Shown piece by piece: positions 1-27,075 of a stretch of 57,756 bases of DNA; within the stretch, counting starts at the first letter, position 1, and every line of letters starts with the position of its first letter. This stretch comes from Candidatus Bathyarchaeum sp. GTDB lineage: Archaea > Thermoproteota > Bathyarchaeia > Bathyarchaeales > Bathyarchaeaceae. Under the pieces are notes generated by a model. The model was not told where the DNA came from. It saw only the letters and a list, made by a program, of their open reading frames with translations, and made no database searches. The stretch is taken from contig JAFGGM010000054.1 of NCBI GenBank assembly GCA_016930555.1, positions 1 through 57,756 on the forward strand. Reading direction: 5' to 3'. The translations under genes and the position numbers were made by a program.

Positions 1-285
1 AAGGGATATCCACTCCGTATTTGTTTCGGACAAAAGAGCCAAAGATTCGTCAGATTCTGAGCTGCCAAAAGCGTCAGGGCTCCAAGTCGAAAAGGACATA
101 CCCTTTTGGTAGACCGGCACTTCATAAGAAACCGAAACTGGAAACACAGACGAACCAGCAATTTCAGCATCTCTATAATTAAGGGTGATGGAAAATGCGG
201 GGCAAGCAAGAGCATTTAATGTCAGCAGAACCATAAACAATGAGACAATTAACGCTTTTTTTGGTACAGCCATAATCTTGACCAT
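1..285 (-). CDS. Secreted glycoside hydrolase, GH113-like (5' part; runs off the window edge)
   Basis: Manual translation, not in ORF track: MVKIMAVPKKALIVSLFMVLLTLNALACPAFS (signal peptide) ...YQKGMSFSTWSPDAFGSSESDESLALLSETNTEWISL, resembling the GH113 N-terminus (QKGxS...SL..L..tg.nWisl). Confidence 0.6.
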   Translation of the reverse strand, partial: MVKIMAVPKKALIVSLFMVLLTLNALACPAFSITLNYRDAEIAGSSVFPVSVSYEVPVYQKGMSFSTWSPDAFGSSESDESLALLSETNTEWISL

Positions 286-5443: not shown

Positions 5444-7405
5444 CTACCTCTTTCTAGAAGAAACTTTCGGCTGGTAAACGCACCACGGGTCAGATGCCAA
5501 ATAATCGCCTTGCGACGTTGTTGGTTCATGCAGTGCACCACAAAAATCCATCTGATCTGTAGTTACGCCATAGGCTCTGGCGCGGCATCCTCCACATTCT
5601 TCACGGTGTTCACAAATTCCACATTTTCCTTTCAGTTGGTCAAAGTCCCTGAGTGCCTTGAAGACTTCTGAGTTGAACCAGATGTCCTTGAAGGACCTTT
5701 CTCGGATGTTGCCAAGATCAAGGGGCAGATACGGGCAAGGCGTAACCTCCCCTGAAGGATAGATGCGGCAGTAATAGAGACCCGCCATGCAGCCTCGAAC
5801 CCACCGCGACATGTCAACTCCCTGCTCCTTAGAAACCCGCATAAACTGTGGAGCACAGGAAGGTTTTACATTCATTTTATACTTCGTAATTTTGCCGAGA
5901 GTACTCGAAATCATGTCTTCATACATCTGCGGAGTAATATCTTCAATGTCGGTTCCTCGTCCAGTAGGCACCAAGAAAAACAAATGAAAATTGTCCACAC
6001 CCAAATCCTCTGCCAGAGCCATTATGTCATCTATCTCATCATAGTTTTGTAAAGTCACTGTACTGTTAACCTGAACCTCTATCTTGCTCTTTTTAAGAGA
6101 CTTGATGGCATCTACGGCATGTTGCCAGCAGCCCTTAACGCCTCGGAAATCATCATGACGTTCAGGTATACTTGAGTCTAAACTAATTGCAACAGTTCCC
6201 ATTCCAGCATCTTCAAGTTTTTTTGTAACCACGTCGTCGATGAGCATACCATTGCTTCCCATGCCCATCCTTAAGCCACGGTCTGCACCATACCTGATGA
6301 TTTCATAAATGTCATCTCTCATGAGGGGTTCACCGCCGCTCAATATCAACAGTGGTCTGCTGACTTCAGTAATCTGATGGATAAGCATCTTCGCTGCGTC
6401 AGTACTTAATTCATCCGCTAATTCTGTTTCAGCCGCGTTGATATAACAGTGGGCACACTTCAGATTGCACTTCAAAGTAACATTCCATGATACAACTAAT
6501 GGAACATACTTCTCTTTACTGGGCGCAGCAGATATGGGGGCAATCTTTATGCGGAACTCACATTTTCCGTCAGTTGCCATCCTCATAGGTTGAGTGACGG
6601 CTACTGGGAAGGGAATGAACTTTTCGAACATCGACTGGGCATGTGCCCTGCAGAAGCGTTTGCAGAAAAGTTGGGACGTTTCCGTGCTTGTGTCCAACTC
6701 CTTTTTCACGTATTGGTGGCTTCCGTAGATGGGGCAATTCAGGAACCGCATGAATCCTCCTAGATTCTTCATGTCCATTTCGTGTTCGATGAAGTGGTCG
6801 CTGAGCATCAGTTTCTGCAATTTTGCTTTTGATATTCCAACCTTCAGGCTAACGTTGAAAGCGGAGTCAACTGTTTCGTCACCAAACTTCTTCTGCACCC
6901 TAGCCATAACTTGCTCAAGCTGTTCTACACCCAACTCGTCAGCCAACCGTTCCACAATCAAGAAACCCTTAAGTGTCTCATACTCTTGACGTAAACGCAT
7001 CTCAATAACATATTTAGTCCAATCAAGAAACACGCTACTGATGAGATCCTTGGCTTCAGAATCCTTTCGATTAAGCAGCTCCTCAACTTCTCTGGTTCTG
7101 TCACTCAGACTCTTGAAAAGATGAATTTTTTCCTCGACATTAGGCGCCTCATTTCTAACTGGCACCACTAAGCTATCTTTCAGAGGCACAATTTCAGCCA
7201 AAAGCTTCTTGGCATCGGAAACAAAGTCACTGTAAAAACGCCACAACATTCTATCCACAGAAGGAGAATCCACCTTAAGTTCCTCAAGAATAACTCTGGA
7301 TTCAGCAGCCATCTTACTTACCATTGCCATGTGGTACAACAATGAGCCTTCCATTCCTGCATCACTGCTTCTGCCAGAGGAACCATGAAATACATCAGAA
7401 ACCAA
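5444..7405 (-). CDS. Radical SAM/SPASM protein (NirJ/AhbC/AhbD-like) with a ~300-aa N-terminal extension
   Basis: VSWNVTLKCNLKCAHCY (CxxxCxxC), SGGEPL, FFLVPTGRG, GCMAG...VTPCPY, KCGICEHREECGGCRARAY...DPWC. Confidence 0.9.
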   Translation of the reverse strand: MVSDVFHGSSGRSSDAGMEGSLLYHMAMVSKMAAESRVILEELKVDSPSVDRMLWRFYSDFVSDAKKLLAEIVPLKDSLVVPVRNEAPNVEEKIHLFKSLSDRTREVEELLNRKDSEAKDLISSVFLDWTKYVIEMRLRQEYETLKGFLIVERLADELGVEQLEQVMARVQKKFGDETVDSAFNVSLKVGISKAKLQKLMLSDHFIEHEMDMKNLGGFMRFLNCPIYGSHQYVKKELDTSTETSQLFCKRFCRAHAQSMFEKFIPFPVAVTQPMRMATDGKCEFRIKIAPISAAPSKEKYVPLVVSWNVTLKCNLKCAHCYINAAETELADELSTDAAKMLIHQITEVSRPLLILSGGEPLMRDDIYEIIRYGADRGLRMGMGSNGMLIDDVVTKKLEDAGMGTVAISLDSSIPERHDDFRGVKGCWQHAVDAIKSLKKSKIEVQVNSTVTLQNYDEIDDIMALAEDLGVDNFHLFFLVPTGRGTDIEDITPQMYEDMISSTLGKITKYKMNVKPSCAPQFMRVSKEQGVDMSRWVRGCMAGLYYCRIYPSGEVTPCPYLPLDLGNIRERSFKDIWFNSEVFKALRDFDQLKGKCGICEHREECGGCRARAYGVTTDQMDFCGALHEPTTSQGDYLASDPWCVYQPKVSSRKR

Positions 7406-8494: not shown

Positions 8495-10843
8495 TTGACC
8501 AATAAAGGTTTGCGTGTAAAAGCAAAAGAACTCAAAACAGACATTGCATTAGTAAAAGGACTAGAACTTTCAGTCGGCAAGATCATTGATGACACTTGGG
8601 AAGAACCTATGGGTCCTACACCAATGCCCCACATAGCCACACTAAGAGATTGGGACATGAAACTGCTCAACAAATACAAACCTTTCTATATGCCCGACTG
8701 TGACCTCTGCTGTCTCTGCACTTACGGCAAATGTGACTTGACAGCAGGAAAGCGCGGAGCATGTGGCTTAAACATAGCTGATCAATCTTCTCGTATTGTC
8801 CTTATTGCATGTAGTATCGGTGCCGCAACTCATACAGGACATGCACGACATGTTGTTGATCACTTAATCGAAGAATATGGTCGGAACTATCCACTTGACG
8901 TAGGTGGCTTTAATGTTGATGTTGAGGCTCCAGTAACTCGACTTGTTACTGGAATAAAACCAGAAACACTTGGAGATTTAGACGAGGTTTTGACTTATTG
9001 TGAAACACAAGTAACTCATTTACTATCCGCAGCTCATACCGGTCAAGAATCTAATAACTTGGATTTTGAATCCAAAGCGTTTCACGCTGGCAGAGTAGAC
9101 CAAGTTGGTATGGAAGTCGCAGATATAGCTCAAATTTCCGTTTTTAATTTTCCCAAAGCTGATCCTGAAGCTCCTCTGATCGAAATGGGATTGGGAACAA
9201 TCGACAATGCAAAGCCAGTCATTTGTTGTATAGGTCACAACGTAGTTCCTTCGGTTGGAATCATCGATTACATGAAAGCAAATAAACTTGACAGTAAACT
9301 GGAAGTTGTAGGTTTATGTTGTACTGCCATTGACAATTCGCGATACTTTGACCGAGCAAAAATCGTTGGTCCCATATCATGGGAGCTACGTGTCATACGA
9401 AGCGGTCTTGTTGACGTATTGGTTTTGGACGAACAATGTGTCAGAACAGATTGTGCACTAGAAGCAGAACGAATCAACGCACCAGTTATTGCTGCCTCAG
9501 AAAAGAACTGTATAGGCTACAAGAACCGCACAAACGACCCAGTTGATGAGATAGTCAACGACTTGGTAAGCCGAAAAGTTCCTGGAGTTTTAATTCTAGA
9601 CCCCGAAAAAGTTGGCGAAGTCGCAGTTAGAGTCGCACAGAAAGTAGCGCCTATGCGCAAGAAACTAAGCATCTTACCTTCTGAAGAAGAAATTATCAAG
9701 CTAGCTAAAACCTGTCGCCACTGCAATTTATGCCAAAGAAGTTGTCCACAAGACCTCGAAATTCCCGCCGCTATAACAGCAGCAGCTGAAGGTAACCTCA
9801 AACCTCTAACTGACTTATATGAAGAATGTATTGGATGTGGAAGATGCGAAGAAGCTTGTCCAGTCAAACTCCAAATCCACAGCTTCATACTAAAGGCTGG
9901 ACAGAAATACATGCTTGAAGAAACAAACTTCTGTCGTGCCGGCAGAGGAGCAGTTCAAGATATCGAAATCCGATCTGCTGGTGGTCCTATTGTACTCGGT
10001 GAAATCCCTGGCATCTTAGCAGCTGTAGGTTGCGCCAACTATCCACACGGTGGTAAAGATGTTTACGACATATGCCGAGAGTTTGCTCAACGCCGATTTA
10101 TTGTGATGACTAGCGGATGTTCAGCTATGTCCGCTGGTTCATACAGAAATGAAGAAGGACAAACACTCTATGAAGAATTTCCGGGCTCTTTCGAGGCTGG
10201 TGGCGTGCTTAATGTTGGCTCCTGCGTTTCTAACCCACACATTGCAGGCGCAGCAATAAAAGTTGCTAGCATATTTGCTAAAAGAAACTTGAGAGGTAAC
10301 TATGAAGAAATCGCTGATTATATACACAACCGGATTGGCGCTGTAGGTCTAGCATGGGGAGCATACTCGCAGAAAGCTGCATCTATTGCATCGGGTTTCT
10401 GGAGTCTAGGCGTTCCTGTTCTTGTAGGACCACACGGAAGCAAATACCGACGCATGCTTATGGGCAGATCTGACAAACCAGAAAACTGGGAAGTCTATGA
10501 TGCCCGCACAGGCGATACAGTAAATGTTGGACCAGCACCTGAGCATTTGTTCCAAACAGTGGAAACCCCACAAGAAGCCATGGTTGCTATAGCAAAACTC
10601 TGCATAAGACCAAACGATACTTGGAAGGGGCGATCAATAAAACTCTCTCATTACATTGACCTACACAAGCGTCACTATGGAAGAATGCCAAAGGACATTC
10701 ATCAATTCGTGCGAACAATGGCTGATGTGCCAGTGACCATGAAGGATGAAATCAAAGACATATTGGAAGCAAAGGGCTGGAAAGAGACTGTTATTCCGGA
10801 CCCCACAATGCTTCCAAGAATGATAAGGAGCAAAAAGGAGTGA
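8495..10843 (+). CDS. cdhA: ACDS complex alpha subunit (CO dehydrogenase)
   Basis: CDLCCLCTYGKC, GHNV, CCTA, DEQC, two ferredoxin motifs, GCAN, SGCS, GSCVSN. Confidence 0.97.
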   Translation: MTNKGLRVKAKELKTDIALVKGLELSVGKIIDDTWEEPMGPTPMPHIATLRDWDMKLLNKYKPFYMPDCDLCCLCTYGKCDLTAGKRGACGLNIADQSSRIVLIACSIGAATHTGHARHVVDHLIEEYGRNYPLDVGGFNVDVEAPVTRLVTGIKPETLGDLDEVLTYCETQVTHLLSAAHTGQESNNLDFESKAFHAGRVDQVGMEVADIAQISVFNFPKADPEAPLIEMGLGTIDNAKPVICCIGHNVVPSVGIIDYMKANKLDSKLEVVGLCCTAIDNSRYFDRAKIVGPISWELRVIRSGLVDVLVLDEQCVRTDCALEAERINAPVIAASEKNCIGYKNRTNDPVDEIVNDLVSRKVPGVLILDPEKVGEVAVRVAQKVAPMRKKLSILPSEEEIIKLAKTCRHCNLCQRSCPQDLEIPAAITAAAEGNLKPLTDLYEECIGCGRCEEACPVKLQIHSFILKAGQKYMLEETNFCRAGRGAVQDIEIRSAGGPIVLGEIPGILAAVGCANYPHGGKDVYDICREFAQRRFIVMTSGCSAMSAGSYRNEEGQTLYEEFPGSFEAGGVLNVGSCVSNPHIAGAAIKVASIFAKRNLRGNYEEIADYIHNRIGAVGLAWGAYSQKAASIASGFWSLGVPVLVGPHGSKYRRMLMGRSDKPENWEVYDARTGDTVNVGPAPEHLFQTVETPQEAMVAIAKLCIRPNDTWKGRSIKLSHYIDLHKRHYGRMPKDIHQFVRTMADVPVTMKDEIKDILEAKGWKETVIPDPTMLPRMIRSKKE

Positions 10844-21976: not shown

Positions 21977-22412
21977 TTGAAGAGAACAGGGGTTACGAGT
22001 CTTCCGCTTCATTCTGGTAAAGCCCCGCGATGGCTTGTTTTCCGAATGCAGAAACTCGCTAACGAGATGGTTACCATAATGATTGACGAGTATGGCGTGG
22101 ACATGTTTCTTAGACGTGTCTCGGACCCATTCTGGTTTCAGGCCTTAGGTTGCGTCTTAGGGTATGACTGGCATTCGTCAGGAGTCACCACTGTTTTAAC
22201 AGGCATTCTGAAAACGGCAATAAACAAGAGGGAGCTGGGCGTGACTGTTTGCGGCGGCAAGGGCAAAACCTCCCGTAAAACTCCTGAAGAAATCGAATTC
22301 TTAGGAGAAAAGTACAGTTTTTCAGAAGACAAACTCGATAGATTACTGTATGCCAGCCGAATGAGCGCAAAGGTTGACAGCACTGCAATTCAGGCAGGTT
22401 ATCCTCTGTATC
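21977..22412 (+). pseudogene. DUF763 (COG1415) gene, 5' part, interrupted by the integrated element
   Basis: LPLHSGKAPRWL, DPFWFQALGCVLGYDWHSSGVTT, SRMSAKVDSTAIQAGYPLY; homology ends at the left direct repeat. Confidence 0.92.
22392..22412 (+). repeat. attL core, 21-bp direct repeat AGGCAGGTTATCCTCTGTATC
   Basis: Exact copy at 26375-26395. Confidence 0.97.
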
Positions 22413-22464
22413 CAACCCATCTCACCGTGAACAACACGCCTCTACACTAGAATACGCATGGCAC

Positions 22465-23304
22465 ATGAAGAAAAAAGGACTATCACAAGCAACAATCAAA
22501 ACAAGAACATACCTGTTGAGCAAGCTCATAAAACTAGGAGCAGACCTAAACAACCCTGATACCGTAGAAACAATAATAGCAACACATGACTGGAAAAACC
22601 CTTACAAAAAGAACTACGCCAACGCCTACAAAGCATACACCAACTACAAAAAAATACAATGGGAAAAACCAAAAATCACAATAACACAAAAAGAACCATT
22701 CCTACCAACAGACGAAGAAGTAAAACAGCTAATATCAGGAACATCAAAAACGGTCAGCACCCTAATCCAACTTTTATACGAAACAGGAATCAGAATCGGA
22801 GAAGCAAACGCGCTCCAATGGACTGACATAGATTTAAAATCCAATCAAATCAGAATCAATTGCCCAGAAAAAGGAAGCAACGCGCGAACCCTGAAAATCT
22901 CAGACACACTGACAACAATGCTTAACAAACTTACCCGAAGAAAAGACAATAACATCTTCAACCCAAGAACACGAACAATAAGCACAATATTCAGCAGACA
23001 AAGAAAAAGACTAGCCGAAAAACTGCAAAACCCTAGAATCAAACAAATCCACTTCCATACACTAAGACACCTAAAAGCAACAACAGAATACTACAAAACA
23101 AAAGACATCCTTCATGTAAAATACATTCTAGGACACAAAAGGCTAGACACTACACAAAGATACGCACACTACCAACCATTCCAAAAGGAAAAATACCACT
23201 GCAAAGTAGCCAAAACCCAAGAAGAAATCACAGACCTAATAGAAAACGGATTCGAATATGTAACCGAACAAGAAGGACTAAAATACTTCCGCAAAAGGAA
23301 GTAA
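22465..23304 (+). CDS. Tyrosine recombinase/integrase (C-terminal, catalytic part)
   Basis: TGIRIGE (R), EKGS (K), HTLRH (HxxR), LGHK (H), TQRY (Y); adjacent to attL. Confidence 0.95.
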   Translation: MKKKGLSQATIKTRTYLLSKLIKLGADLNNPDTVETIIATHDWKNPYKKNYANAYKAYTNYKKIQWEKPKITITQKEPFLPTDEEVKQLISGTSKTVSTLIQLLYETGIRIGEANALQWTDIDLKSNQIRINCPEKGSNARTLKISDTLTTMLNKLTRRKDNNIFNPRTRTISTIFSRQRKRLAEKLQNPRIKQIHFHTLRHLKATTEYYKTKDILHVKYILGHKRLDTTQRYAHYQPFQKEKYHCKVAKTQEEITDLIENGFEYVTEQEGLKYFRKRK

Positions 23305-23316
23305 AACCCTCTTTTT

Positions 23317-23499
23317 TTAACAATCAATAAACATTGAATCCCAACAATCTTTATGATACAACTTCCTAGAAAACTTACTACCTACACTAACAACAAAATC
23401 ACCAACATACAAAAACTTATCACACTTGTAACAAAAAACCTCACCATAAAGCACAAGGAATGTAGAATATCTAGCATCATCTAAGATATATTCAGGCAA
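23317..23499 (-). CDS. Small Zn-finger protein of the element
   Basis: CYKC...YHKDC; GGAGGT 7 nt before the TTG start. Confidence 0.65.
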   Translation of the reverse strand: MPEYILDDARYSTFLVLYGEVFCYKCDKFLYVGDFVVSVGSKFSRKLYHKDCWDSMFIDC

Positions 23500-23620
23500 T
23501 CGCTAAACCTCCAAAAAAGAACGCTCGTCAGGCATCTTCGATGCCTTCCTCGAAAAAAAAGAAAAAAAAGAATAAAACCACTCCGAAAACGCCTCAAAAA
23601 AGGTTCTTTTTCAATCAAAT

Positions 23621-23866
23621 TTAACGAATCCCACGAACAACCCTTACAACCATCTTCTTCTTACAATCCCAAACACTACAACCCATGAAAATATCACGAA
23701 CATCAGTAATACTCAAATTCTTAGGAAAATAAGGACAAATCCACAAAATCTCACCAGTATTTCCATAATCAACAATCTTACACCCAACAAAATTTGAATC
23801 GTCAAAATGCTTACCATTAGGATACTTACAAAGCATGTTTTCTTTAAAAGGACACAAATCACCCAT
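23621..23866 (-). CDS. Small Cys-rich protein of the element
   Basis: 81 aa with six Cys; co-oriented downstream of rep. Confidence 0.55.
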   Translation of the reverse strand: MGDLCPFKENMLCKYPNGKHFDDSNFVGCKIVDYGNTGEILWICPYFPKNLSITDVRDIFMGCSVWDCKKKMVVRVVRGIR

Positions 23867-23979
23867 CTTAATTTACCATCCTAAAGCCAAAGGAGAGGAG
23901 AGAGGACAGAGGTGAAAATCCTCCTCCTCCTAATCCCACAACCCAACCCTTACCCAAAACAAACATCTCTAAAAACAAA

Positions 23980-25356
23980 TCAAGCAACTCCAACATGAAT
24001 ACACATCCTATGAACAGGACGTTTACCGTCCAACATCCTCAACTGAGACACATCGGTAATAGGTTGATGACACAAAGCACAATGCTTATAGAACGGAGAA
24101 GGTTCGGGAGCCTCAATACCAGCAACCGCAAAGGATTCCTCATACGCCTGATAAGCAGACTCATAATCCAACTCCTTAGCATCCGCTATTACACCTCCTC
24201 CCTTAGAACGACTAGGCGCAACCCTCCACACAACATTATCATCCTCATCACGATAATCCAAATACAAATCCTCACCATACTTACCCTCACCAACAAGTTG
24301 ACCAATAGCCAACTTACCAAGATACTCAATACGCTCCAACTCAGAGCCACAAATAGGACACAGTTTCTTACGAATCTCAGCAGTAAACTTCAACTTACGA
24401 TAACTGCAAATCCCAAACCAAGTAACAATACTACTCCGCTTCTTACCTTCAGACTTCTGATAACTAGCATGAGTTAATTGATACCATAAGGTTCCACCAA
24501 CAGTAATACGCTTATCCATAACCTTACTATAATAACCAGTCTCCTGATACAACGCCCAACGCTTCGCATTAAAACCATCACAACCAACCTTACAATCAAA
24601 ACGAGAAGGACAACTACGACACTTAAAACCGCCCTCAACAAAACCAAGAATATGCCAATGAGGACTATAAAACCAACCCTTACCACCTCTTTCATAACGA
24701 AAAGCATGAAAAATCAAACAACCACCACTAACACCAAGACGCTCCATAAACTTAACAGCCTTACTACGAGCCTCCTTCAAAGACAAACCATAATCAGAAG
24801 AAGCAATACTCAAAATAATATGCTCAACCAAACCATGACCAGAAACAGCCTTCAAACGGTCAGAAGCACGAAAAGCCTCACGAACAGCCCAACCAAACTT
24901 AAAACACTTAGGACAATCAGGCTTATAACAATAACAAGGACGCTTCTGAACATACACGTTACCAGCAAAATTACGACCATCCAAACGAGTCACATTATGC
25001 TTATGAACATTCAAACAACCCTTCAACTTCTTATTCAGATACATGCCACACATATGATTAGTCACTTCACCATGACCAACCAACCAAAAATCACCATGCC
25101 GACCCCAAGAGTCAGGCAAATTAATCTCAGGAACCACATCTACAAAACTTTTATTCTCAGACTGAGGTTGCTCATCATCCTCAATATCTTCAAAGCCAAT
25201 CTCAGAATCTTCAACTAACCTATCAACATTGTTTAGTAACGATAATAGCTCAACATTGTCGCCACTGACTTCATCCAACGAAACACCAAACTCAATAGAC
25301 CTATCGACCATCCATGCACCATCCAAGACACCACCGAAGTAAAACCAAACGCACAA
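23980..25356 (-). CDS. HUH-superfamily rolling-circle replication initiator with multiple Zn-binding clusters
   Basis: Motif I-like EHIILS, motif II SPHWHILGF, motif III-like YQLTH; CYKPDCPKC and CPICG. Exact start uncertain. Confidence 0.8.
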   Translation of the reverse strand: MCVWFYFGGVLDGAWMVDRSIEFGVSLDEVSGDNVELLSLLNNVDRLVEDSEIGFEDIEDDEQPQSENKSFVDVVPEINLPDSWGRHGDFWLVGHGEVTNHMCGMYLNKKLKGCLNVHKHNVTRLDGRNFAGNVYVQKRPCYCYKPDCPKCFKFGWAVREAFRASDRLKAVSGHGLVEHIILSIASSDYGLSLKEARSKAVKFMERLGVSGGCLIFHAFRYERGGKGWFYSPHWHILGFVEGGFKCRSCPSRFDCKVGCDGFNAKRWALYQETGYYSKVMDKRITVGGTLWYQLTHASYQKSEGKKRSSIVTWFGICSYRKLKFTAEIRKKLCPICGSELERIEYLGKLAIGQLVGEGKYGEDLYLDYRDEDDNVVWRVAPSRSKGGGVIADAKELDYESAYQAYEESFAVAGIEAPEPSPFYKHCALCHQPITDVSQLRMLDGKRPVHRMCIHVGVA

Positions 25357-25488
25357 ACAATCACAATAGACAATACCAAACGTGCCTCAATACAAATGTA
25401 TCGAGTGATGTAAGAACAACTAACCACAATTGAAATATAAATAATTTGTGGACAAAAAAATTGCAAAAACAACATGAAACCATAAGTA

Positions 25489-25596
25489 GCAGGAGGGGCT
25501 GGGCAAAGTTCAGAGGTTTCACCCACTAGCGGGGTGAAAGTCGCGCCAATTCGCGCGACCAAGCCTCTCTGACTTTGCCAAGACACGCCCCCCTGC
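25489..25596. other. GC-rich branched secondary structure; candidate replication origin or structured RNA
   Basis: Nested inverted repeats: 25489-99/25587-96, 25502-09/25572-79, hairpin TTTCACCC/GGGTGAAA (25517-39) and hairpin GTCGCGC/GCGCGAC (25540-59). Confidence 0.7.
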
Positions 25597-26319
25597 ACCG
25601 CCCTTAACTCGAAAATCAAAGAAACTTCATATAAAAAACAACATTGACCACAGCAGAATCAACTAAAAAATTAATCAATCCGCAACAAAGTTATCAACAA
25701 AAGGAAGATACAACATTACCCTTTATGAAACCCAAAGGAAGATAAATAAACTTCCTAAAAACCAACACTGAAAATCAAAACCAACTGACTCACCTACAAA
25801 GTAGCCAATACGAACAAGACCACACCTCAAAAATTCCTAAAACGGATAATACGCCAACAAACAACAAAATATTAACATTAAAACACAAGCCAAAATCCTC
25901 TACCTGAGATTTTGGCGACAAAAATAATTACAAACAAAAAACAAAAACCCAAGTAATAGACAAACGCCAACTACAAATAAAAAACAAACGCCAACTCCAA
26001 TTAGAGGAGTGGCGTGTGTGTGACCCAATAGCAAACTCCTCTCTAAACTACAAAAGAGACAAACATCCATCAACAGCACAAAAAAATAAACCAGAACTAC
26101 AACAGAGTCTCAGAAAACTACTGGATAGCACCACCATCTACCAAAACAAATCCATATACAAGTCCAGAAACACAATAGAGCCTAAAAACAAAAAAAGCTC
26201 AAACAAACAAACAAGGCAACTCCAATAGAAACAAACGACAACTACAATAAAACCTAACGCAAACGAAATAAACGATAAATACGACAACAGCCCAAACAAA
26301 AAATAAGAAATGAAAGGGA

Positions 26320-26395
26320 GGAGGTGAAAAACAACGAGTAAAAAAGACAATAGTAAAAAATTACTTTGCCCCATAGGCAGGTTATCCTCTGTATC
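26320..26395 (+). other. Integrase 5' fragment: SD GGAGGTGA, ACG candidate start, codons SKKDNSKKLLCPIGRLSSV
   Basis: In frame with integrase ATG 22465 across the reconstructed attP, with no stop codon. Confidence 0.65.
26375..26395 (+). repeat. attR core, 21-bp direct repeat
   Basis: Identical to 22392-22412. Confidence 0.97.
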
Positions 26396-27075
26396 ATCAT
26401 GCTTTTTTTGTTACAGAAGGGGGAGAATGGGCTGTGGTTCAGCAGGGAATAAACATTAATGACAAGTCGGCGCGAAGGTATCATTGGCTATCCGGTAACG
26501 TGAAAGATTTTGTCGTTGAACCTCATGACGCCGTGGTTGGAGACATGAAAAAAGATGTTGTGCTGGACATGACTTCACAAGAAAGTGAAGGCTGTAGAAA
26601 AACCTCAACTGACATCGTCAAAGAGAATCCGAAAAAATTGAAAAAAACAATTCTTTCTATTCGTCCTGTCCATCAGAAGTCTTTGCAGGAATGGATTCCG
26701 CAGTCTCAAGAAACAGAGTATACAATTGACGCTTTTTCGTTGCCACGTAACCTTAACTGGAACACAGTCAAGCGGGTGTACGATTTTCACCCCAAAAACT
26801 ATGAAGAACTGATAGGCATCAGAGGTGTGGGTCCTGCAACAGTCAGAGCCTTAGCTTTAGTTTCTGAGATGGTCTACGGTGAGAAACCCTGCTGGGAAGA
26901 CTCCATAAAATACAGTTTCTGTGTGGGCGGAAAAGATGGAGTTCCTTATCCCGTGGACAGAGCAACTTATGATGAGACCATAGAAATTTTGGGAAACGCA
27001 ATAGAACAAGCCAAAGTTGGCAACAAAGATAAGCTTAATGCCGTGAAGAGGCTGCGTGTTCTCACAAATCAGTGA
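26396..27075 (+). pseudogene. DUF763 gene, 3' part
   Basis: Resumes as (GYPLY)[50 protein letters not shown]. Confidence 0.92.

Follow-up and report, generated by a model that had tools for sequence, protein, structure and literature searches.

A Bathyarchaeia integrase gene that very probably spans its own attachment site and is split by integration into a DUF763 gene

Several bacterial elements interrupt a conserved gene of their host, e.g. the skin element in sigK, the nifD element, and the comK prophage with its 'active lysogeny', and their excision restores the gene. Archaeal suicidal (type I) integrases, such as those of SSV1, pTN3, and pT26-2, add a second broken gene, their own, a property considered peculiar to archaea. 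They are described as sharing the domain PF16795, treated as the hallmark of all known members and read as a sign of a single origin (PMC8371274). Their targets are tRNA genes, and they are linked mainly to hyperthermophiles (PMC8371274, PMC7253208); all att sites given by Badel et al. (2020, PMC7253208) are tRNA genes. The two gene halves, int(N) and int(C), are described as fast-evolving pseudogenes, and excision with an integrase supplied in trans is discussed (PMC8371274). Among the integrated elements reported from Thaumarchaeota, 14 of 68 lie in protein-coding genes, and the SSV1-like integrase of NitEve-E3 is split on integration (Krupovic et al., 2019, PMC6563490). The stretch of DNA considered here, a contig of 57,756 nucleotides (nt) from Candidatus Bathyarchaeum sp. 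(JAFGGM010000054.1 of assembly GCA_016930555.1), is referred to as the window. At 22392-26395, codon 145 of a DUF763 gene is interrupted by an integrative element of 3983 bp that is plasmid-like and belongs to a Bathyarchaeia archaeon. The integrase gene (int) of this element very probably runs across the element's own attachment site (attP) and is split by integration. This topology is known from archaea and is found here in a different integrase lineage.

The window is one contig (C59) of an 80-contig metagenome-assembled genome (MAG) of 1.14 Mb and 84% completeness. A repeat search revealed a perfect direct repeat of 21 nt, AGGCAGGTTATCCTCTGTATC, whose left copy (attL core, 22392-22412, plus strand) and right copy (attR core, 26375-26395, plus strand) are spaced by 3983. 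The host gene is broken at this point. Its 5' part, which ends with the left copy (21977-22412, plus strand), matches positions 1-147 of the 319 positions of the PF05559 profile (E 8.5e-63), its 3' part (26396-27075, plus strand) matches positions 154-319 (E 8.6e-53), and both parts joined by coordinates yield a stop-free protein of 371 amino acids (aa). In the integrated state, the 5' half reads into the element and stops at 22448-22450, in another frame than int and 14 nt before the first canonical integrase start, the ATG at 22465 (Met22465). DUF763 was intact in all ten relatives examined and present in 280 of 401 genomes searched; disruption of a conserved gene in its middle is less usual than integration at a 3' end. 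The uninterrupted site was found in 10 of 10 genomes of the same genus or family, with 15-20 of the 21 core letters identical. As read from the empty-site alignment, an imperfect inverted repeat surrounds about 7 nt at the P-L codons, which looks like a classical core.

Contigs from sequencing runs bear on the mobility of the element. In X1, the probable source run, it forms a single contig of 4022 nt that corresponds exactly to 22383-26404 and thus ends 9 nt outside each repeat copy. The contigs of this run are presumably built from 31-letter words. Given such a word graph and a repeat of 21 nt, ends at these positions are to be expected if the empty-site junction is also present; occupied and empty sites coexist in the source sample according to this reading. 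Depth is 27.9 for the element contig vs 34-40 for the flank contigs, ratios of contig means that are only indicative. A contig of run X3, which stems from another study, skips from 22391 to 26375, the 21 core letters fitting either side, with about 93% identity to the host flank. Fragments 96.5-100% identical to the element are present in X2, X3, and X4, in X2 together with the left junction at zero mismatches; near-identical copies are hence found in the runs of four studies. A plasmid collection held no DNA match to the element, plasmid and phage collections gave only distant integrase matches (<33% identity), and viral contigs held int relatives of at best 46%, none of them close, and no relatives of the element's Rep-like protein.

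The encoded integrase is a Xer/lambda-like tyrosine recombinase (PF00589) outside the SSV-type sequence family. PF00589 (Phage_integrase) is matched with 83.4 bits at a cut-off of 27.1 and is the only family listed; a search of Pfam-A with hmmscan at E values up to 10 gave no match to PF16795 (Phage_integr_3). Within NCBIfam, the top-scoring family is XerA_Arch, covering residues 25-266 of the 308-aa frame that is open in the integrated state. In the numbering of this frame, R139, K165, H227, R230, H253, and Y262 are invariant in 34 aligned sequences. We take them to be the R, K, H-x-x-R, H/W, and Y catalytic residues, as judged from the motifs ETGxRxGE, HTLRH, LGHK, and RY.

An initial annotation of the window, made from its sequence, had proposed that excision rebuilds a longer int gene with a Shine-Dalgarno (SD) sequence and an ACG start. 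Joining the right end to the left end by script gives GGAGGTGA (26320-26327), 6 nt, and ACG (26334-26336), with an int frame that is open from 26328 through the core to the ATG at 22465, a span of 40 codons, and continues with MKKKG; the coordinate-based translation thus confirms the proposed join. It also reproduces the 38 additional codons counted from ACG, which together with 279 give 317 aa. The part at the right end, int(N), comprises the ACG start position and 13 codons up to the right repeat (26334-26374, plus strand). As had been claimed, two frames read the core: the host frame gives QAGYPLY and the int frame, shifted by one base, gives GRLSSVS. In the integrated state, the remaining frame, int(C) (22378-23304, plus strand; PF00589 E 2e-23), is open from 22378 to the stop at 23302-23304. 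Upstream it is closed by the TGA at 22375-22377 that the annotation had named, 29 codons before Met22465, and no SD sequence precedes Met22465. ATG, GTG, and TTG are absent from the 40 codons upstream of Met22465 in the joined state as well as from the 29 codons of the integrated state. The join alone is not significant, since an in-frame join has a chance of 1 in 3 and 16 stop-free codons are unremarkable in A-rich DNA. The support for a split gene therefore comes from structure and from relatives. GGAGGTGA occurs 21 times in the 1.14-Mb genome and is followed in nine of these cases, some of them within longer open frames, by a canonical start within 3-11 nt that opens at least 60 codons; on this count, the SD sequence at 26320-26327 may be taken as evidence of moderate weight.

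Structure places residues of the integrase upstream of Met22465. The AlphaFold2 model of the 308-aa frame (22378-23301), built with 33 homologs, has a mean predicted local distance difference test (pLDDT) score of 91.2 and displays the two-domain architecture of a helical core-binding and a catalytic domain. Its first core-binding helix spans residues 14-32, encoded at about 22417-22473. Met22465 is residue 30, so that 16 of the 19 helix residues lie upstream of it and a protein starting there lacks the first core-binding helix. Solved recombinases align from model residue 14-18 onward. The nearest is XerA (5hxy_C; Z 18.9, 241 residues aligned, model 18..268, from XerA residue 4), followed by the Int of Tn1549 (Z 17-18, from residue 81-82), lambda Int (1z19_B; Z 16.3, root-mean-square deviation (rmsd) 3.8, model 17..273, from lambda residue 74), and Cre (Z 14-15, from residue 20). 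The SSV1 integrase 4dks, the protein of a spindle-shaped virus, aligns with its catalytic domain only and at rank 50 (Z 11.1, rmsd 2.5, 118 residues aligned).

The best 120 of 605 database matches, named Bathyarchaeota or Bathyarchaeia in public records, served for comparison of homologs. The members of the closest clade (58-72% identity among the matches listed) are annotated for the most part as proteins of 279-284 aa that start with MKK(K/R)G. The initial annotation had suggested looking for conservation upstream of this point, and it is found across the family: longer homologs keep the residues before the methionine as ..I(I/V)xF(A/G)W(H/K)M.., some of them with L, A, or Q in place of Met. 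In P0010 (312 aa, 67% identity), 13 of the last 15 residues before Met are as in the window frame. Family conservation, the AlphaFold2 model, and the alignments with XerA, lambda Int, and Cre all place part of the integrase in this region; the integrase ORF (open reading frame) reaches upstream of Met22465. P0010, encoded on a contig of 101,777 nt, is the only close homolog listed with an N-terminal extension. Its ATG precedes the conserved Met by 33 codons, its N-terminal residues are similar to the beginning of int(N) in L152 (a related element described below), and from its sequence it may be an unsplit copy of a window-type gene.

Two related elements, at the fetched loci L152 and L200, have both ends visible and an int that is convergent with a homolog of the Rep-like protein. 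In L152 (int 43% and Rep 35% identical), a perfect repeat of 16 nt lies inside the int frame at a spacing of 4770 and is made up of the final codons and the stop codon of a host gene of 247 aa. The joined frame of L152 crosses the repeat and continues into int; 26 codons ahead of the repeat it has an in-frame ATG, which follows GAGGT at a distance of 8 nt. Once integrated, L152 offers neither a canonical start nor a Met at the position of Met22465. In L200 (int 48% and Rep 47% identical), a perfect repeat of 17 nt inside the int frame, at a spacing of 4782, likewise comprises the final codons and the stop codon of its host gene, which belongs to the URO-D family. Its integrated state offers no canonical start before an internal GTG and again no Met at the position of Met22465. 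In a MAFFT alignment of 40 nt per right arm, GAGG, an A-rich spacer of 8 nt, and the start share columns in the window, L152, and L200. GAGG(T/A)-N8-start is thus common to the three right arms, and the window ACG, whose counterpart in relatives the annotation had left to be compared, stands in the column of the ATG of L152 and L200. By this alignment, the start position of the relatives has its homolog in the ACG position.

The three right arms share a further motif, AAATTACT(A/T)(A/T)G, at a distance of 8-10 nt upstream of the repeat (window 26358-26366, L200 about 6075-6085, L152 about 10668-10678). It is probably a DNA site of attP and a candidate binding site of the integrase. A KLLxxI similarity before the core had been considered as protein conservation and was dropped, L152 having the same DNA motif in another frame.

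The proposed mechanism is based on this anatomy. In the circle, the present right end (26320-26374) would supply the ribosome-binding site, the start position, and 13 codons; the 21-bp core would form the next 7 codons, followed by the left end that begins with the first core-binding helix. The joined ORF would be the one translated. Integration would break DUF763 in mid-gene and detach int from its ribosome-binding site, its start, and presumably its promoter. What is left would be int(C), startable only at Met22465 and without its first helix, while int(N) would be stranded 4 kb away, reading into the 3' half of DUF763. By its anatomy int(C) is expected to be inactive, i.e. integration would switch off or truncate the integrase, as the initial annotation had assumed. 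Precise excision would mend both DUF763 and int. That integration breaks both genes and excision mends both follows from the gene anatomy.

In these respects, the element resembles the suicidal integrases of SSV1, pTN3, and pT26-2: attP lies inside the int ORF, integration leaves a short int(N) and a catalytic int(C) at opposite ends, the gene is restored by excision, and there is no sign of a separate excisionase. Unlike them, the window integrase does not contain PF16795 and has XerA, Tn1549 Int, and lambda Int as its nearest folds; its target is a protein-coding gene (DUF763, codon 145) instead of a tRNA gene; int(N) of the window type has only about 14-26 codons; and the host is represented by a Bathyarchaeia MAG rather than by an isolated hyperthermophile. 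Neither a tRNA gene nor an Rfam family was found in the window. Being Xer-like (PF00589) and devoid of PF16795, the integrase lies outside the family of the suicidal integrases, although it probably works like them. The analogy with SSV1-type integrases drawn by the initial annotation therefore holds for the splitting by the own att site and fails for the sequence family and the tRNA target.

Several observations weigh against a gene that is rebuilt in the circle. An in-frame TGA (26325-26327) that overlaps the SD sequence closes the joined frame two codons before ACG, and the genome makes only modest use of SD sequences. ACG does not count as an accepted start in archaea, and a literature search for archaeal genes with such a start found no paper. 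Among the 20 closest database homologs, all but P0010 are called from the position of Met22465, and of the close homologs called from this Met the DNA was read for one only (P0004, locus L006). Part of the similarity between the right arms lies at the DNA and not at the protein level, since the frame of AAATTACT in L152 differs from that in L200 and the window. The right arm of L200 contains GAGGA-N8-ATG with the ATG one base out of frame, and hence, of the three elements with both ends visible, L152 alone has an intact canonical split gene. A -1 slip or an additional A in the A6 run of L200 would restore the frame; this was set aside as a mere reading, an assembly error or decay being equally possible. 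The attP junction of a circle was not seen in the contigs of the four runs, where rare forms are dropped, and the X1 contig is unbroken at the repeat itself, where an attP branch would break it. No RNA runs containing the stretch are listed.

Searches for further elements of this kind gave little. The fetched loci contain 177 int copies (not de-duplicated), of which 141 have an upstream CxxC..CxxC zinc (Zn) ribbon and 13 have no canonical start at least 12 codons upstream of residue 1. Among ten loci with short open frames, none lies beside DUF763 and L200 alone was informative. Right ends (attR) were sought by repeats of 10-12 nt in further loci whose int has no upstream start (L018, L062, L064, L154, L163, L197, L202, and L203), with only ambiguous matches at chance level, and a word search limited to residues 1-60 of the 308-aa frame found nothing but the protein of the window itself. 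In the 401 genomes of the order that were searched, the sole close int relative (71%) is a decayed remnant, L086. At this locus (G457:C16, from a MAG recorded as Candidatus Bathyarchaeum), residues 1-30 of DUF763 directly abut int from residue 65, at 71% identity, and L086 is what is left of a window-type insertion.

As ACG takes the place of the relatives' ATG, the amount of full-length Int made from the circle is expected to be very low or none. The codon is either a weak start or a decayed ATG, the two alternatives that the annotation had offered, and both appear about equally likely. It is quite plausible that the gene is split as described and that int(N) is dead in this copy, the ATG having decayed to ACG after integration, with mobility only through an integrase in trans. 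ACG stands at the ATG position of two relatives, a change from T to C fits the bias of the plus strand (G 12%, T 18%), int(N) of L200 is also defective by its frame offset of 1 nt, and the halves of suicidal integrases are described as pseudogenes, with excision occurring in trans (PMC8371274). The MAG itself encodes int paralogs that are possible sources of an integrase in trans: a full-length one at C32:3940-4779 (minus strand; 42% identity, 394-codon open frame), one at the start of a contig (C25:16-351), and fragments with stops at C30:29638-29928 and C24:13096-13305. Against decay stand the open remainder of int(N), the intact int(C) and Rep genes, the near-identical copies in the runs of four studies, and the occupied and empty sites side by side in the source sample; moreover, a start codon is a small target for a random first hit.

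It is likewise possible, if tentative, that the split gene is functional and that ACG is a weak near-cognate start behind a perfect SD sequence of 8 nt, which would keep the synthesis of Int in the circle very low. GGAGGTGA, which we take to be a full match to the usual archaeal anti-SD sequence, makes a stronger SD sequence than GAGGT in L152 or GAGGA in L200. The spacing to ACG is as in these relatives and within the 4-11 nt found before genuine starts of the genome, and the element is apparently circulating. An in-frame TGA two codons upstream, which ends a mini-ORF of 5 codons (ATG to TGA, 26310-26327, plus strand, in the int frame) and overlaps GGAGGTGA, complicates this reading. To our knowledge, no archaeal gene is documented to start at ACG. 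In ribosome profiling of Haloferax, about 30% of the putative alternative initiation sites are reported to be near-cognate (PMC7261190).

A weak start would also be part of a more far-reaching, rather doubtful proposal, according to which the element is a self-limiting reversible switch: a trickle of Int would arise via ACG in the circle, integration would silence DUF763 as well, and rare excision would restore both genes. The window element is similar to the skin, nifD, and comK elements in that a conserved host gene is broken midway and would be restored exactly by site-specific excision; unlike in these cases, nothing links its excision to a programme of the host. If true, the switch would be an archaeal counterpart of the bacterial 'active lysogeny', one that arose independently of the SSV type when int of a Xer-like ancestor with a Zn ribbon became inverted beside attP.

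It is unlikely that the integrase is a protein of 279 aa made from Met22465 in both states, with attP in the 5' untranslated or promoter region, the join and the SD sequence coincidental, and the upstream conservation a relic of the Zn ribbon or DNA bound by Int. The initial annotation had named a common start at the MKKKG position, without conservation upstream and without a distal SD sequence, as the finding that would speak for coincidence. The first part holds, as 21 of the 22 closest-clade sequences of alignment A1 are called from this Met, which is invariant in the closest clade. The other two do not: conservation extends upstream across the family, and the far ends of L152 and L200 display GAGG(T/A)-N8-ATG. 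Two blocks of 12 nt upstream of Met are identical in the window and L006 and could be DNA sites, AAATTACT near the core is conserved whatever the frame, and the in-frame join could arise by chance in one of three cases. Yet a protein from Met22465 would be devoid of its whole first core-binding helix, L152 and L200 have no Met there and no canonical start nearby, the position is often L, A, or Q in the wider family, and Met22465 has no SD sequence. A gene caller is, moreover, forced to such a start in an integrated copy. This is seen in L006 (P0004, 69% identity), an integrated copy behind the 5' half of DUF763 whose upstream frame is closed and spans 29 codons with no canonical start. About 370 nt downstream of int, L006 also contains a second partial copy of the int 3' end (L006:1506-1627, 77% over 122 nt), possibly a relic of a tandem or earlier insertion.

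A start at ATG 26310 with readthrough of the TGA at 26325-26327 into int is highly improbable: this ATG is in the int frame and its first codons resemble the right-arm mini-ORF of L200 (ATG AAA, a small residue, two basic residues), but it has no SD sequence, the start column of the relatives aligns with ACG instead, and there is no sign of TGA recoding, the host genes of the window being normal under translation table 11. A frameshift from ATG 26310 was rejected, as three-frame translation places stops before the core in both the +1 and the -1 frame.

If the gene is split as proposed, the truncated integrase calls of 279 aa in the window clade are explained. The self-splitting topology would then occur in a Xer-like PF00589 lineage, on small plasmid-like elements of sediment Bathyarchaeia, and with protein-coding genes as targets. 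The origin of this arrangement may be traced through classical relatives. Type II (pNOB8-/lambda-like) integrases of Bathyarchaeia with a Zn ribbon belong to the same family as the window integrase (44-60% identity, same catalytic domain). They occupy the same DUF763 site in at least ten fetched loci (L007, L010, L012, L014, L030, L033, L087, L089, L166, and L167), and L166 also has homologs of Rep and of a 60-aa ORF of the window element. The classical relatives differ in that int is intact with an N-terminal CxxC..CxxC ribbon, att lies about 40-90 nt downstream of the int stop, and int is opposite in orientation relative to DUF763 and Rep. The ends of L166 and L167 share just 6-7 nt, at the same DUF763 codons. 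The window clade may thus have lost the Zn ribbon and had int inverted beside attP, an independent route to a self-splitting integrase. One family with split and intact int at the same DUF763 site could show how such an integrase arises.

Like the elements described from Thaumarchaeota (PMC6563490), the window element is small, cryptic, and integrated, and encodes a tyrosine integrase. In L152 and L200, too, the 3' end of a host gene, with its last codons and the stop, serves as the target. The protein-gene integrations of Thaumarchaeota are described as 3'-distal, leaving the host gene functional (PMC6563490); the insertions of the window, L006, L166, and L167 instead lie in mid-gene, at codon 145 of about 371. 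Codon 145 of DUF763 is a recurrent insertion hot spot at which a widely conserved gene of unknown function is broken. A literature search that did not extend to supplements found no paper on DUF763 as a target or on such elements in Bathyarchaeia. Besides the window and L006, insertions by the same integrase family at or near this codon are those of the ten classical loci (L166 is G393:C6 and L167 is G352:C14), and elements of 4.3 kb and 14.5 kb have been seen there. In three further genomes (G042, G165, and G024), a contig ends at DUF763 profile positions 146-154. In L168 (G262:C5:7300-23400), from the same genus, DUF763 is broken by about 14 kb some 25 codons further on, near an RYHW motif; both halves match the profile at positions 155-173, and a weak match to the 60-aa ORF is present.

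The other ORFs of the element lie on the minus strand. The largest (P0121, 23980-25311) encodes the Rep-like protein, a Cys-rich protein of 443 aa that matches no Pfam, PHROG, or NCBIfam family. None of its 168 homologs, found mostly on contigs of 1-8 kb, has a Pfam domain; homologs lie at L200:2496-4097 and L152:7122-8159 (both minus strand) and also in L166, L163, and L164. H218, H220, and Y277 together with several Cys residues are invariant in 38 sequences. In the model of this protein (pLDDT 77.5), both His residues are on a strand (212-225) and the Tyr is on a helix (271-280). Foldseek gave no match to the model at E <= 1e-3. In a VIA wide scan of 48,161 chains, HUH Rep nuclease domains rank first, with a Z of only 4.7-5.5 over model residues 148-308; these weak matches include SIRV1 ORF119, Vientovirus Rep, pMV158 RepB, nanovirus Master-Rep, and AAV Rep. 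On this weak evidence, the protein is probably a HUH rolling-circle initiator, and its family is possibly an undescribed archaeal family of rolling-circle Rep proteins.

The plus strand of the element consists of 43% A, 27% C, 12% G, and 18% T and the flanks are balanced. The same asymmetry is displayed by the related elements: in the window (22413-26374), L200 (1327-6091), and L152 (5933-10686), the int-sense strand contains 39-44% A and 25-28% C, independent of gene direction, the Rep-sense strand being poor in C and A, with balanced flanks in all three. This is compatible with one strand spending time single-stranded, which would fit a rolling-circle Rep. Between Rep and int(N), an A/C-rich stretch without a credible ORF (25620-26309) is a candidate origin or promoter. 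It contains tandem units of 24 nt (25950-25997, 83% alike) and A-rich repeats of 20 nt (25926-25988); from their sequence, the repeats at 25926-25997 look like iterons of an origin.

Two small ORFs complete the element. The 81-aa ORF (23621-23866, minus strand) is Cys-rich and matches no Pfam or PHROG family. The same holds for the Cys-containing 60-aa ORF (23317-23499, minus strand), for which tblastn gave weak hits, one in L166 (E 1.4e-4) and one in L168 (E 3e-7). L200 carries cargo that is not present in the window element, a 206-aa ORF and a GNAT acetyltransferase (PF00583, E 1.7e-12) at L200:4413-5337.

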